Shown here piece by piece: positions 1,078 to 5,031 of a DNA stretch of 64,000 nt (positions within the stretch are counted from its first letter, which is position 1; each line of letters begins with the position of its first letter). Source of the DNA: an uncultured cyanobacterium (GTDB lineage: Bacteria > Cyanobacteriota > Cyanobacteriia > CAKZMO01); the NCBI GenBank assembly GCA_963719515.1, contig CAVRCJ010000003.1:256001-320000 (forward strand), read 5' to 3'. The notes under the pieces were generated by a model. The model worked only from the letters and a program-made list of their open reading frames with translations. It did no database searches and was not told the origin of the DNA. Position numbers and translations under genes: made by a program.

Positions 1078-3498
1078 CTAGGCATCCTTCACTTGTACCG
1101 CAAATCGTGCGCTCCGCAGCGTTTTCTCCTCAGAGGCGACGAATTCAAAGTGAATCTCCCCGCTCTGTACAGGGGGAATATCCACATAGGCGATGCCCAA
1201 AGGCGTCATCACAGCGTCTTGGGTCTGGCTATCAGAACCAGTACCAGAGCCAGCGCTAGAGCCGGACTGGGTCCACCAGCGGAGGGTAAACTCTTCGGGG
1301 ACCTGTACCCTGAGCACATACCCCGGCTTGATGCGAGCCACGCGGCGGTTGGGTTTCCAGATTTCCAGATAGCGGCGATTATCTCTAGGCTGTTGGTAGC
1401 GCTCTGCCACCTCTGGAATGTAGTCGAATACCTTGCCGTCGCTGAGCGATCGCAGCAGCTTAATATACTCCGAGTGCGCCCACATCAGCGGCATGGCCGA
1501 GCCGGTGGGCCGCCCGAGGTGCATATGGGCCTCGGGGATGTCATCTGTGTCCCAGCTTTGCTCCGGCAGCATTCCCGTGTCGTTGGCGAACCCCTCTATT
1601 GACTCCAGCAGTGGCCCAATGTCGTGGCCTGCCGCTAGCTCGTAGTGGGCCCGCTCTCCGGTGAGCAGGGGCCAGATGCGGCCCACGCCAGTCTCCTCGA
1701 AGGCGGTGCCGTCGGCCTGCTGGCCGTAGCCGTCGTGGTTGTAGCGGTGCCAGCCTACGCCGCTCGGCGTTTCGGTGCGTAGCGCGGCGTCTACGACCTT
1801 GAGCGAATCGACGATTAGCGGATCGTGGGGGCTGCGAATGCCGTAGCGCACCAGCTCTAAAAAGCCCCCATCTACAACGTCTTTGGCCGGAAACGCCTGG
1901 TCGCCTTGAGGGCGGTTGATGATGTAGAGCGTAGCGGTGTTGGGATCTTCGCAGGGAGCAGGGTCGTCTATCTCGGCGGGCAGCACCCGGATAAAGTGGC
2001 GGGGGATATCGGGGACAAGACTGCCTTGAGTGGTCACCGTCCAGGCTTCGAGGTGGTCTTCTAAAAAGTCAGCGTACTCCTCAAGGAACTGCGCCGTCTC
2101 GACTTCATCCCGCAGGCGGGCAAGGCGGGCTGCACAGACAAGAGCCGCGATGCTGGTGGCCAGAGTCGAGGGGGAGTATCCGCAGGCCTCTTCCCAGCGC
2201 TCTTGCTCCGTGGCGGGGCCGTGAATAATCAAGAAGCTCGCCGCCTTCTTCACCATTGTGTAGGGGTCGAAGTTTTGCAGCGTCTCTTCGCAGTGGAGGG
2301 TGTAGGCCAAAATGATGGGTAAGGCCACTTGGTCAAGCTGTACCCCGCACCAGTGGGCGTCGCCGTTGATCCAAAAGTTTTGGGGGAAGCCGCCGCTGTC
2401 CTGCTGGCTGGCCGCTAGGTAAATCAGCGCTCGCAGCGGCGTTTCCGAATTGCCCGCTGCCAGCAGCCCGCGAGCGCTGTTGACCATATCCCGCACCCAC
2501 ACGAGGTGATAGCCCCCCTGCTCATCGTCTCCTTTGGTGTGGCCCCAGGGAATGGCGAGGGAGGCAATCAGCGCCCCGGGATAGGTCTTGTCCTCATGGG
2601 CCATCAGCAGGCTGAGGCTGGTGTGGTAGAGGTGCCCTTCATCGTGGGTGAACTCGACTAGGGCAGCGCGCGTGTCGTTGCAGCAGGGCGGCTCCCACTG
2701 CTGCTGAAACTGCTCCTTTTGGGTTTCGAAAGGTTCGCTGAGCGCCTGCAGCACCGTCGTCACCGCCGCGTGACGACAGTCGCCGAAGCCAATGCCCAGG
2801 GTAAAACCATCGTCTTGCCGCCAGTCCAGCTCCGCCGTCAGGGCCGTGTTTCCGTCCTTGGCTTGGTCAGACTGATAGTCGAGCTGTCCGTTGTCGCGCA
2901 GGTCTTGCCAGCCGTCGCTAGTGCCCACATACCCAGCGGAGGCCTGGATCAGGGGAACCGTCGCGGCGATCGCCAGCCAGGTCTTTTCGCGGGTCGCCAC
3001 CAAGACGGTGCGCCCCGCCACGTTCAAAATCTGCGCAGTATTGCCCCAGCCCGCCACATCTATATGGGGCGCACACAGCACGTAAAGCTGTAGCGCATCG
3101 AGGACAGCGCTATCCCCTGAGAGGCGCGTGTGCTGCAGCACGCAGGGAGAGATAGGTGATGAAATAATTTCCTTGATAATCTCGAAGCGTCCATCGGGGT
3201 CCCGGTTGGTAACCCGGTAGCCCAAGGCGTGGGTCCACATTCGTTCGGTGGTCGACTGCAGGTGCGATTTCTCGCTTTGAAACTCGCCTTCTAGGGTGAC
3301 GAGATACTGCAAATCGCGGGTCTGGGGCCGATCGATGGTGGGGTAGTATAGCTCGGTGAGTACACCGTTCCACAGCGTAAACCAGACGCGGCTGGCGGTG
3401 GAATAGGCGGTGCCGACGCCGTCTTTATTGCCCTGAGTCCACCGAGGCTCGGCTCCAAAGGGGCCAAAGGCTTGCCGCTGTCCGCGAAGCTGTATCAT
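1078..3498 (-). CDS. Glucan 1,4-alpha-glucosidase / glucoamylase (GH15 with N-terminal glucodextranase-like domain)
   Basis: Motifs GGYHLVWVRD, QERWEE, GRIWPLLTGER, LPEQ and SAMPLMWAH. The ATG at 3498 is chosen because the longer ORF start lies inside the IS left end. Confidence 0.85.
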   Translation of the reverse strand: MIQLRGQRQAFGPFGAEPRWTQGNKDGVGTAYSTASRVWFTLWNGVLTELYYPTIDRPQTRDLQYLVTLEGEFQSEKSHLQSTTERMWTHALGYRVTNRDPDGRFEIIKEIISSPISPCVLQHTRLSGDSAVLDALQLYVLCAPHIDVAGWGNTAQILNVAGRTVLVATREKTWLAIAATVPLIQASAGYVGTSDGWQDLRDNGQLDYQSDQAKDGNTALTAELDWRQDDGFTLGIGFGDCRHAAVTTVLQALSEPFETQKEQFQQQWEPPCCNDTRAALVEFTHDEGHLYHTSLSLLMAHEDKTYPGALIASLAIPWGHTKGDDEQGGYHLVWVRDMVNSARGLLAAGNSETPLRALIYLAASQQDSGGFPQNFWINGDAHWCGVQLDQVALPIILAYTLHCEETLQNFDPYTMVKKAASFLIIHGPATEQERWEEACGYSPSTLATSIAALVCAARLARLRDEVETAQFLEEYADFLEDHLEAWTVTTQGSLVPDIPRHFIRVLPAEIDDPAPCEDPNTATLYIINRPQGDQAFPAKDVVDGGFLELVRYGIRSPHDPLIVDSLKVVDAALRTETPSGVGWHRYNHDGYGQQADGTAFEETGVGRIWPLLTGERAHYELAAGHDIGPLLESIEGFANDTGMLPEQSWDTDDIPEAHMHLGRPTGSAMPLMWAHSEYIKLLRSLSDGKVFDYIPEVAERYQQPRDNRRYLEIWKPNRRVARIKPGYVLRVQVPEEFTLRWWTQSGSSAGSGTGSDSQTQDAVMTPLGIAYVDIPPVQSGEIHFEFVASEEKTLRSARFAVQVKDA

Positions 3499-3583
3499 GG
3501 GAAATTTGCTGAACGGGATTATCCTTTCAAGGTACGAAGGGCAGAGCAGCTTAGCGTCAATCGGAAGAGTTATATTTTGGCTC

Positions 3584-3605
3584 GGGGCGAGGGTGACCTC
3601 GCCCC
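3584..3605. terminator. GC-rich stem-loop just outside the IS left end
   Basis: GGGGCGAGG-gtga-CCTCGCCCC, a perfect 9-bp stem; no clear U-tract. Confidence 0.4.
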
Positions 3606-3667
3606 TGCTGCATTGGCCCCATCGCCTAGGGCCTTGACCAAAAATCATGGGTCTAAAGCCCCGTCCT

Positions 3668-3808
3668 TCAGGACGGCTTCTCTAAATGTAGGCGATCTAT
3701 CCAATCTTCTACCAGTTGAGTCATGGTCTTGTCCCTCTCTTTTGCAATCGCCCTAAGCTTTTGCAATCTTTTAATAGAGACTCTTAAATTAAGCTGTCCT
3801 TTTGCCAT
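3668..3808 (-). CDS. Small ribbon-helix-helix (CopG/Arc-like) DNA-binding protein inside the IS, 46 aa; not in the ORF track
   Basis: Hand translation: MAKGQLNLRVSIKRLQKLRAIAKERDKTMTQLVEDWIDRLHLEKPS*. Alternating beta-strand pattern LNLRVS, helix 1, turn (KT-M-TQ), helix 2 (LVEDWIDRL). Confidence 0.7.
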   Translation of the reverse strand: MAKGQLNLRVSIKRLQKLRAIAKERDKTMTQLVEDWIDRLHLEKPS

Positions 3809-3810
3809 AC

Positions 3811-3844
3811 TGCCTACACAATGCCTACGCATCTATGCTATCAT
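3811..3844 (+). promoter_or_regulatory. Putative tnpB promoter with a tandem operator
   Basis: Direct repeats TGCCTACACA (3811-3820) and TGCCTACGCA (3822-3831), 11-bp period. Extended -10 TGcTATCAT (3836-3844) lies 7 nt before the ATG at 3852. Confidence 0.5.
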
Positions 3845-3851
3845 AAACAGT

Positions 3852-4976
3852 ATGAGAACATTGAAGTTTAAGATATACGAGCACAAGCGGAACCGGCACC
3901 TAAAGCGCACTATTAATGCTGCTGGGGTGATTTGGAACCACTGCATTGCTCTCCACAAACGGTACTACCGTATGTGGGGCAAACACCTCAATTGCTCTAA
4001 ACTTCAGTCTCATATTGCCAAGCTACGGAGGCGCAATCCGTTTTGGCAGTTGGTGGGGTCTCAGGCTGTGCAGGACATCTGCCAGCGAATTGAAAAGGCA
4101 TACCAGCTGTTCTTTAAGCATCACGGCAAAGGCTATAGGCCGCCTAGCTTTCAGAAGGTAAGGCGATACAAGTCGTTCACCCTAAAACAGGCGGGATACA
4201 AGCTGCTCAATGGTGGTCGTATCAAGATAGGCAGCAGGGTCTACCAGTATTGGAATTCAAGGGAGATAGAGGGCAAGGTTAAGACCGTCACGGTGAAGCG
4301 ATCGCCTTTGGGTGAGCTGTTTTTAGCCGTTGTGGTGGACCAGGAAGCTGAACCAGTTCAAGGCATCGAGACGGGTAAAACCGCTGGTGCTGATTTTGGA
4401 CTGAAGACGTTTCTCACTTTGTCAGATGGTACTCAAATCGAGTCTCCTGAATTCCTGAAAGCATCGCTCAAAGACCTTTGCCGAGCTAGCCGCAACCTAT
4501 CGCGCAAGCGAAAAAAGTCGGCAAACTGGCACAGGGCAAGACTAAATCTAGCTCGCTGCCATGAGGCCATAGCCAATAGGCGACGAGATTGGTTTTGGAA
4601 GCTTGCCCACCGGCTAACCGATACCTACGATGCGCTCTACTTTGAGACGCTGAACCTGAAAGGGATGCAGCGGCTATGGGGCCGGAAGATATCGGACCTA
4701 GCCCTAGCTGAATTTCTCGAAATCCTTCAGTGGGTGGCAAAGAAAAAAGGCAAGACCGTAGCATTCATCGACCAGTGGTATCCCAGCTCTAAAACTTGTA
4801 GCTGTTGTGGGCACGTACTGAAGGAGTTAGATCTAAAACAACGGCAGTGGGATTGCCCTATTTGCAACGAACATCACGATCGAGACTTAAATGCTGCAAT
4901 AAACATTCAACGGGTTGGGGCGTCAACCCGTGGGCTAGGCGATGTCAGACAGGCTCAGCCTGCGATCGCTGCTTGA
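3852..4976 (+). CDS. tnpB: RNA-guided endonuclease TnpB
   Basis: RuvC-I GADFGLK, RuvC-II YFETLN, Zn finger CSCC...CPIC, RuvC-III HDRDLNAA; all three catalytic acidic residues present. Confidence 0.95.
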   Translation: MRTLKFKIYEHKRNRHLKRTINAAGVIWNHCIALHKRYYRMWGKHLNCSKLQSHIAKLRRRNPFWQLVGSQAVQDICQRIEKAYQLFFKHHGKGYRPPSFQKVRRYKSFTLKQAGYKLLNGGRIKIGSRVYQYWNSREIEGKVKTVTVKRSPLGELFLAVVVDQEAEPVQGIETGKTAGADFGLKTFLTLSDGTQIESPEFLKASLKDLCRASRNLSRKRKKSANWHRARLNLARCHEAIANRRRDWFWKLAHRLTDTYDALYFETLNLKGMQRLWGRKISDLALAEFLEILQWVAKKKGKTVAFIDQWYPSSKTCSCCGHVLKELDLKQRQWDCPICNEHHDRDLNAAINIQRVGASTRGLGDVRQAQPAIAA

Positions 4977-5031
4977 TTCCAGAATCCCCGCTCTTCAGGG
5001 CGGGGAGTACGTCAATTTAACGGTCCGTGAC
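4900..5031 (+). ncRNA. Putative omegaRNA/reRNA (scaffold overlapping the tnpB 3' end and RE; guide from the flank starting at 5016). The 5' boundary is approximate.
   Basis: Established TnpB biology (right-end-derived RNA). The RE hairpin and TCAA end are visible; predicted guide TTTAACGGTCCGTGAC. Confidence 0.6.

Follow-up and report, generated by a model that had tools for sequence, protein, structure and literature searches.

A 64,000-nt stretch of DNA from an uncultured cyanobacterium, called the window throughout, contains a 1377-bp insertion sequence (IS) of the IS200/IS605 family in which the gene for the RNA-guided nuclease TnpB faces away from a 46-aa gene for a protein of the ribbon-helix-helix (RHH) type. 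TnpB elements gave rise to Cas12, and few genes are as abundant in cyanobacteria. The small protein would, in our reading, be an autoregulated repressor of the tnpB promoter, for which we put the probability at roughly 0.72 and in which DNA binding, repression and autoregulation are deduced from the layout of the sequence and from analogy with related proteins. The original prediction for this DNA, a two-gene module in which an RHH repressor governs TnpB, stands as regards the gene, its fold, its linkage to tnpB and the phased repeats between the two genes, while the repressor role itself is something that we infer.

Results

A small gene under purifying selection

The small open reading frame (ORF) lies on the minus strand, divergent from tnpB, and runs from an ATG at 3808 to a last sense codon at 3671–3673 and a TGA stop codon at 3668–3670. 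Its translation is identical to the 46 residues given in the original prediction, and it is placed correctly inside the element 3639–5015, whose boundaries are fixed by nine copies in the same genome. The stop codon was also rightly said to fall in the loop of the left-end hairpin, because the TGA lies within the TTCA loop at 3667–3670; the 3′ arm of the hairpin encodes the terminal Pro-Ser. A 54-aa version from the in-frame ATG at 3832 was rejected, as homologues begin at the position of 3808 and the extension is not conserved. The length of the ORF is by itself unremarkable (42 ORFs of at least 30 aa occur in 4 kb), and it is lifted above chance because it is conserved as a protein.

A word-indexed search returned 10 relatives with 65–76% identity, and HMMER, run exhaustively over 1.84 billion cluster representatives, gave 108 matches with E ≤ 0.001, including 2 long repetitive proteins that were taken as spurious. 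When one genome per prokaryote species was scanned, 197 of 296 pattern matches were confirmed by tblastn, and the best 80 of these 197, corresponding to 79 distinct loci, were kept; all counts out of 79 loci below refer to this selection. Every one of these loci that has an organism name comes from a cyanobacterium, and one is titled “uncultured bacterium” only. The plasmid collection yielded one distant match, and a homologue on a Calothrix plasmid carries the annotation “hypothetical protein”. Within the genome of the window, tblastn (E ≤ 10) detected the gene only in the nine copies and once more, as a divergent solo copy. By tblastn, this RHH family is missing from the 65 other TnpB loci of that genome (<50% identity), a result that does not extend to other small regulators, which were not searched for there.

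The RHH core is uninterrupted in 77 of the 79 loci, the exceptions being L031, which has one stop, and L068, which is cut by the end of a contig. Selection was assessed on 78 cores (the window plus 77 loci; 72 unique DNA sequences, 2556 pairs). Column entropy at codon positions 1, 2 and 3 was 0.80, 0.46 and 1.38, and the mean pairwise proportions of nonsynonymous (pN) and synonymous (pS) differences were 0.226 vs 0.837 in the frame of the ORF, compared with 0.26–0.39 vs 0.22–0.63 in the other five frames. The median ratio of nonsynonymous to synonymous substitution rates (dN/dS) was 0.12, with every pair below 0.5, over the 435 usable pairs; synonymous sites were saturated in 2094 of the 2556 pairs. 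The small ORF is a real gene under purifying selection, and the conservation in related IS copies on which the original prediction had been staked is present.

Predicted fold and dimer

The strand-helix-helix pattern that had been read from the sequence is recovered in the structural model: AlphaFold2, given an alignment of 103 rows, predicts an extended N-terminus followed by helices at residues 12–24 and 29–39 with a mean pLDDT of 92.3. In a Foldseek search of the PDB with this model, the top rows are RHH proteins or domains (ParG, MazE-mt9, CopG, TacA1 and PutA), and the best structural match is P22 Arc (1myk_B; TMq 0.74, root-mean-square deviation (rmsd) 0.7 Å over 36 columns). In the PDB the family profile picks up two RHH proteins, ParG (E 0.056) and protein 56B (E 0.47), and a language-model look-up places the 46-aa protein among RHH clusters. 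When the 103 members were scanned singly against Pfam (E ≤ 0.01), 72 matched DUF6364, 12 RHH_10, 8 56B_RHH, 7 RHH_1 (CopG), 7 CopG_antitoxin, 5 Antitox_RHH, 3 TacA1, 2 RepB-RCR_reg and 1 Arc (PF03869), and four unrelated families had one match each. By these predictions the 46-aa protein has an RHH fold.

The homodimer model reached an ipSAE of 0.50 (0.50, 0.54 and 0.49 in individual runs) vs 0.00 for the best control; among solved structures, 20 of 30 homo-pairs and 1 of 23 single chains attain this mark. The runs share at least 94% of their contacts, with a partner pLDDT of at least 79, and residues 5–9 of the two chains are modelled as an antiparallel pair, with cross-chain contacts 6–8, 7–7 and 5–9, as in the RHH ribbon. 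The modelling supports a homodimer, though the pass may stem from likeness to RHH dimers that have been solved.

Linkage to TnpB and a portable cassette

For each of the 79 loci, the partner was defined as the longest ORF on the opposite strand starting within 450 nt upstream of the RHH start, and the 67 partners of at least 60 aa were scanned with Pfam. A TnpB-type domain (OrfB_IS605, Cas12f1-like_TNB or HTH_OrfB_IS605, E ≤ 1e-5) is present in the divergent upstream ORF at 40 loci, and 11 more have a frameshifted, truncated or interrupted TnpB by tblastn (L035, L037, L038, L043, L046, L048, L055, L058, L072, L073 and L079). The RHH gene is hence divergent from TnpB or its remnants at 51 of the 79 loci, which agrees with the proposed co-occurrence with tnpB inside IS ends, and at intact loci the two start codons are about 40–60 bp apart. 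On a rough estimate, a TnpB neighbour within 450 bp would rarely arise by chance, given the 76 TnpB loci in the 5.28-Mb genome of the window.

The TnpB partners are far more diverse than the RHH proteins. Thirty-five upstream ORFs and the window TnpB fall into groups of 17, 17, 1 and 1, between which identity is at most 34% or no BLASTP match is obtained, whereas RHH cores are 61–79% identical across these four lineages; the mean RHH core identity is 69% (range 53–100%) in the 358 pairs whose TnpBs are less than 40% identical. Two loci of one Microcoleus genome (L043:2951–3174 and L054:2950–3174), with TnpBs of different groups (~30% identity), share 225 bp at 94.7% identity. This stretch is bounded by the tip of the left end and the tnpB start codon, and takes in the RHH gene and the promoter region; 37 bp of the right ends are alike as well (89%). 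Three more such pairs have 85–89% identity. The shared 225 bp together with the shared right end argue that the ends and the regulatory cassette move together and have been recombined onto different nuclease bodies.

Several neighbouring ORFs of other kinds were seen at members of the family. In L072:2050–2889 and L073:2493–2912, tnpB is displaced and separated from the RHH gene by HNH endonuclease ORFs, and in the cluster representative P0013 a GIY-YIG-like N-terminus (judged by eye) runs on to RHH sequence; both cases echo the reported association of Arc with homing endonucleases. In L064:2441–2944, the ORF divergent from the RHH gene has a TnpB-like N-terminus (also judged by eye) followed by a PemK/MazF-like toxin domain (E 5.2e-23), which may represent an insertion or a fusion.

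Phased repeats over the predicted tnpB promoter

The two start codons of the window element are separated by 43 bp (3809–3851) that read TGCCTACAC-AA-TGCCTACGC, then TCTATGCTATCATAAACAGT, so that a 9-bp element is repeated directly with a register of 11 bp. Each of the nine IS copies has the exact tandem site once, and the rest of the genome has none; single half-sites occur at the chance rate (89 vs ~81 expected). Among the 79 loci, 77 have enough upstream sequence and a start codon, giving 74 unique 40-mers, and in 43 of these 74 the best 8-nt direct repeat at a spacing of 11 bp has at least 7 of 8 matches and abuts the RHH start codon. Spacings of 8, 9, 10, 12, 13 and 14 reach 7 matches in none of the 74, mononucleotide shuffles do so in 0.4 on average (maximum 4), and in 55 of the 74 no other spacing does as well as 11 bp.

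The sequence of the repeat differs between subfamilies and the 11-bp register is retained. The repeat type tracks the type of β-strand (ribbon) encoded next to it: at least two copies of GCTA[CT]C are found at 22 of 40 loci with the ribbon [RK]LS[IVL]R, at least two of TCTACA at all 9 loci with GLNLRIS, and at least two of YCYACC at all 3 loci with RLN[LV]RVS. Cross-occurrence is nearly nil, with two YCYACC at 1 of the 40 [RK]LS[IVL]R loci.

The first repeat overlaps the −35 of a predicted tnpB promoter (Table 1), from which transcription would start at or beside the tnpB ATG. A palindromic −10 box pattern was also tried; it fitted no more than 43 of 77 loci and was set aside.

A tnpA gene or an RHH gene in the same slot

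The original prediction held that the RHH gene fills the divergent slot taken by TnpA in IS605, and a sister element in the same genome bears this out. This autonomous IS605 (contig C16:9040–10650 of genome G000; ~1010–2690 in L010) has a Y1 tnpA gene (C16:9053–9406, minus strand, 146-aa ORF) divergent from tnpB, and its TnpB is 86% identical in protein sequence to that of the window. It has a TTTAC motif, a similar right-end tail and a gap of equal length (43 bp) that holds the same TATGCTAnCATA box, with no clear tandem repeat and no RHH gene. The C16 element would be the likeliest source of transposase for the nine RHH-tnpB copies. A mini-element on contig C6 (C6:326340–326870; ~1440–1973 in L011) also follows TTTAC, and its left end is nearly base for base that of the C16 element. 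Its tnpA slot holds an intact 44-aa RHH gene (68% identical), and it has no tnpB; 11-bp-spaced repeats of its own (ATGTGC...ATGTGC), ~340 nt of non-coding sequence and the right end of the sister element complete it. These two elements therefore present tnpA and the RHH gene as alternatives at one place, in one IS lineage and in one genome. A tblastn search of the 79 RHH loci with the C16 TnpA as sole query (E ≤ 1e-5) detected no tnpA within 3 kb, although a very divergent Y1 protein could escape it.

No TnpB is present at 28 of the 79 loci, and 21 of these, from Nostocales and relatives, have in common a mini-element of ~650 bp (L071:2600–3270, L061, L066, L067, L074, L077, L078, L081–L084, L086, L087, L089–L094, L099 and L101). 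Its order is a left-end hairpin, an RHH gene of 52–78 aa with a “...DRLP...” tail, repeats with a −10 box, ~390 nt of conserved non-coding sequence, a right-end hairpin and an invariant GGTACTTCAC. All 21 RHH genes are intact, with a pN of 0.139 vs a pS of 0.753 (19 unique cores, 171 pairs). RNAalifold, applied to the non-coding stretch of the 13 of 21 that were aligned, predicts 51 pairs, 19 of them with compensatory changes, and no Rfam family matches the mini-element RNA. In one Scytonema genome there are three complete copies along with several partial ones; two of these copies have a frameshifted RHH gene, and no TnpB lies within 1.5 kb of the Scytonema copies. The remaining seven TnpB-less loci (L039, L042, L051, L064, L065, L068 and L069) are left unassigned. 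As a separate observation, the mini-element at L083:384–2760 is split by ~2.2 kb with a group II intron signature (Rfam RF00029, 51.8 bits, 451–528).

The element and its other features

The element is an IS200/IS605-family IS of the tnpB-only (IS1341-like) kind, as the original prediction said. A DNA search of its own genome (5.28 Mb, 21 contigs) recovered nine copies that are 98.5–100% identical over exactly 3639–5015, and beyond these positions the flanks are unrelated among the copies, with no target duplication seen in the flank alignment. The 5′ motif is TTTAC in seven copies, TTGAC in the window copy and CTTAC in one. The assignment follows from the copies and their flanks, from the hairpins at both ends and the 5′ motif, as is characteristic of such elements, and from TnpB domains in an element without a Y1 gene of its own: none was found inside it, and the 14 Y1_Tnp (Pfam) matches of the genome all lie elsewhere, one of them in the C16 element. 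The features are collected in Table 1.

Table 1. Features of the tnpB-only element and its immediate flank, in positions of the 64,000-nt window.
Feature	Position	Strand	Basis
RHH (Arc/CopG-like) gene, 46 aa + stop	3668..3808	-	ORF, homologues, predicted fold, selection
tnpB, 374 aa	3852..4976	+	RuvC D/E/D motifs, zinc-finger cysteines
Putative operator: direct repeats TGCCTACAC (3811-3819) and TGCCTACGC (3822-3830), 11 bp apart	3811..3830	.	
Promoter-like site for tnpB: -35 TACACA (3815-3820), 18-nt spacer, TG-extended -10 TATCAT (3839-3844)	3815..3844	+	
IS200/IS605-type tnpB-only insertion sequence, 1377 bp	3639..5015	+	Bounds set by 9 genome copies
Target-adjacent motif TTGAC	3634..3638	+	Directly 5′ of left end; aligned flanks of 9 copies
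Left-end subterminal hairpin CCGTCC / loop TTCA (3667-3670) / GGACGG	3661..3676	.	Sequence; DNA fold -7.9 kcal/mol for 3634-3700
Right-end subterminal hairpin	4985..5006		DNA fold
Presumed omega-RNA scaffold end: 3′ end of tnpB transcript + right end	4941..5015	+	Omega identity presumed from the family

TnpB scores with OrfB_IS605 (2.9e-24), Cas12f1-like_TNB (1.1e-21) and the NCBIfam model guided_TnpB (258.6 bits, cut-off 100), and it matches ISDra2 TnpB in the PDB (8bf8/8exa, E 1.1e-47). The motifs GADFG, FETLN and HDRDLNAA, which we take to form the RuvC D/E/D triad, are present along with a CxxC...CxxC finger. Rfam returns no family at its gathering score for the element, no group I intron among them, and gives only sub-threshold matches, to HgcC at 4941–5026 (23.8 bits, cut-off 50, E 0.0074) and, more weakly, to sot0042. 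HgcC, an archaeal RNA, overlaps tnpB genes at their 3′ ends.

Eight further sites on several contigs of the genome (L014–L020 and L022) carry the last 34–38 bp of the right end, with hairpin and GAGTACGTCAA, at 89–94% identity. These are probably the right ends of other TnpB elements, several lying no more than ~150 bp from TnpB matches. At the other end of the element, an 856-aa ORF on the minus strand (1078–3648) has its first residues encoded at 3646–3648, with the IS directly downstream of the ORF start, and this start may be supplied by the left end of the IS.

Discussion

A candidate repressor of its own element

The anatomy suggests how the protein would work. An RHH dimer would form a two-stranded β-ribbon from residues 5–10, and two dimers would bind the two 9-bp direct repeats, which lie one helical turn apart in the 43-bp gap between the start codons. 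With dimers bound, the −35 of the tnpB promoter would be covered; the divergent RHH transcript presumably has both repeats in its 5′ leader, so that binding would repress tnpB and the RHH gene itself. Guide RNA comes from the 3′ portion of the tnpB transcript, as established for ISDra2, and would for this reason be repressed as well. Since the nine copies are near-identical, protein made from any one of them would act on all, and the nuclease would thereby be held low across the whole set. The repressive sign is taken from the phased repeats over the predicted tnpB promoter and from experiments on Arc proteins of clostridial IS605 elements, which are discussed below.

Several observations weigh against this reading. 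RHH proteins can also activate, and the anatomy leaves the sign of regulation unfixed. The promoter is a bare consensus match (1 vs 1.3 expected in shuffles), weak when taken alone, and by eye the RHH gene has no convincing −35 of its own. The repeat statistics are drawn from related sequences, which means that the 74 upstream regions are not independent observations; 31 of the 74 fall below 7 of 8 matches at 11 bp, and 12 loci with the ribbon GRLNLR[IL]S have an inverted repeat, TAGACNTAC...GTANGTCTA, in place of direct repeats. As for the fold, the window protein stays under every Pfam gathering cut-off (DUF6364 18.8 vs 27.3 bits; Antitox_RHH and RHH_10 ~14.8 vs ~27), and the Foldseek E-values are weak (0.7–2, none ≤ 0.001), as expected of a search with only 46 residues.

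Four other explanations compete with repression. It is barely credible that the ORF is a by-product of conserved left-end DNA without a functional protein: its final codons do overlap the left-end hairpin, and the conserved C-terminal “...KPS” could mirror a constraint on the DNA, but third codon positions are about three times as variable as second positions, the frame is intact in all but two of the loci, and the proteins are 60–76% identical even though synonymous differences are near saturation. A functional protein might act on TnpB rather than on DNA, blocking guide or target binding in the manner of an antitoxin. A toxin-antitoxin reading has been proposed for archaeal RHH-TnpB pairs in PMC10691335, and some of the 103 members match antitoxin models (Antitox_RHH 5, CopG_antitoxin 7, TacA1 3). 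The genes of the window are, however, divergent and form no operon, TnpB keeps a canonical D/E/D triad, and the element is mobile, with nine copies. RHH cores that are 61–79% identical, and some that are identical, stand beside TnpBs with at most 34% identity, which is hard to square with a specific protein interface, and the 21 TnpB-less mini-elements retain the gene under purifying selection; we regard an antitoxin as distinctly unlikely.

The two remaining alternatives leave the protein on DNA and change what it does there. As an accessory factor of transposition, it would contact double-stranded DNA ~170 bp inward from the left end and modulate excision or integration by TnpA, or the choice of ends. 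The cassette speaks for such a role, since gene, promoter region and left end travel as one 225-bp unit with the same ends, as do the occupation of the tnpA slot and the retention of the gene by mini-elements that need mobilisation only. It is nevertheless unlikely, as the repeats lie at the promoter and not at the hairpins, and IS200/IS605 transposition depends on single-stranded hairpin ends that are recognised by TnpA; the clostridial Arc experiments also favour transcription. An activator of tnpB or omega-RNA transcription is very improbable. Sites centred near −35 can activate, and AlgZ is an activating RHH protein (main text of bioRxiv 10.64898/2026.09.24.754181), but most RHH regulators with operators over promoter hexamers repress, as do the IS605 Arc proteins that have been tested, and a promoter whose −10 is TG-extended and near consensus should need no activator.

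Taking repression by the RHH protein as the working reading, a broader one can be put forward tentatively, although we consider it doubtful. The ~225-bp cassette of left end, RHH gene and operator-promoter would be swapped among unrelated TnpB lineages within a host and kept in mini-elements, where the same promoter would drive the ~390-nt structured RNA that ends at the right-end hairpin, and one RHH type would act in trans on every element that bears its operator. If true, this would amount to a repressor network that senses copy number and controls RNA-guided nucleases together with their guide RNAs, in which the repressor-only mini-elements would be dampers or cheaters. A practical question is how a cell that carries dozens of active RNA-guided nucleases escapes damage. 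The alternation of tnpA and RHH gene in one genome, the sharing of the cassette by TnpB clades and the mini-elements with repressor and RNA offer natural experiments. The family also offers a candidate operator grammar, two half-sites 11 bp apart that abut the start codon, and RHH-operator pairs might serve as compact, orthogonal switches for TnpB expression. The conserved 46-aa regulator meanwhile goes as a “hypothetical protein” where it is called at all.

Comparison with known systems

In fold and size the protein resembles P22 Arc and CopG (TMq 0.74–0.75, rmsd 0.7–0.9 Å; 45–53 residues), from which it differs in sequence (19–23% identity) and in their phage or plasmid context. P22 Arc and CopG bind repeated half-sites as dimers of dimers. 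The original prediction had likened the module to regulator-controlled Cas12k systems. The likeness to the CvkR and Arc-like regulators of cyanobacterial type V-K (Cas12k) CRISPR-associated transposons holds in that a transposon encodes a repressor of a TnpB-derived RNA-guided protein; CvkR, however, is a MerR-type protein according to the main text of bioRxiv 10.64898/2026.09.24.754181, and its elements are Tn7-like and not IS200/IS605. The archaeal RHH/MazE-TnpB pairs of Altae-Tran et al. (PNAS 2023, PMC10691335) likewise place a small RHH protein next to tnpB. As described in that paper, these pairs are co-directional and non-mobile, have a rearranged RuvC-III and are read as toxin-antitoxin systems, whereas the window has divergent genes, nine mobile copies and a canonical HDRD...NAA.

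The kind itself has been described in two preprints. The main text of Zedaveinyte et al. (bioRxiv 10.1101/2023.11.20.567912) gives the first report of homodimeric Arc-like RHH ORFs associated with TnpB, Cas12k, homing endonucleases, toxin-antitoxin systems and IStrons, and the HNH and PemK-like ORFs that neighbour members of the cyanobacterial family recall it. As presented there, that work is descriptive and was seeded from a Clostridium protein; a group I intron, for its part, was not detected by Rfam in the present element. Moon, Zedaveinyte, Wiegand and Sternberg (bioRxiv 10.64898/2026.09.24.754181, 4 Oct 2026), working with a data set of 8,024 proteins, report in their main text that a clostridial IS605 Arc binds the intergenic promoter by chromatin immunoprecipitation sequencing (ChIP-seq), including in elements with only arc and tnpB, and that it represses a tnpB-promoter reporter in a manner that requires ribbon residues and motif bases. 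Their Arc proteins, as described in that text, share much with the cyanobacterial family: they are small RHH proteins, some of at most 50 aa and some missed by annotation, encoded inside IS605-family elements divergently from tnpB across a short bidirectional promoter, with motifs over the tnpB −35 and a proposed two-dimer model. The proteins tested there are clostridial, however, and the typical layout is arc with tnpA, whereas tblastn with the C16 TnpA detects no tnpA within 3 kb in our 79 loci of the cyanobacterial family; neither cyanobacteria nor DUF6364 is mentioned in the main text. In Pfam the family scores best on DUF6364, which is matched by 72 of 103 members, with Arc (PF03869) matched by 1 of 103, a comparison made with the Pfam model and not with the Arc sequences of Moon et al. 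themselves.

The question of whether such a module has been described, left undecided in the original prediction, can thus be answered: the kind is in print for other bacteria in these two preprints, and our literature search, which did not cover the preprint supplements, found no description of the cyanobacterial RHH family. The principle of element-encoded RHH repression is already published, and the cyanobacterial family is a further member that, on the reading preferred here, would extend it to a second phylum and to purely tnpB-only elements. Three features may be new, being absent from the main text of both preprints: the use of tnpA or an RHH gene as alternatives within one IS lineage, a cassette common to unrelated TnpB clades, and mini-elements that combine the candidate repressor with a structured RNA.

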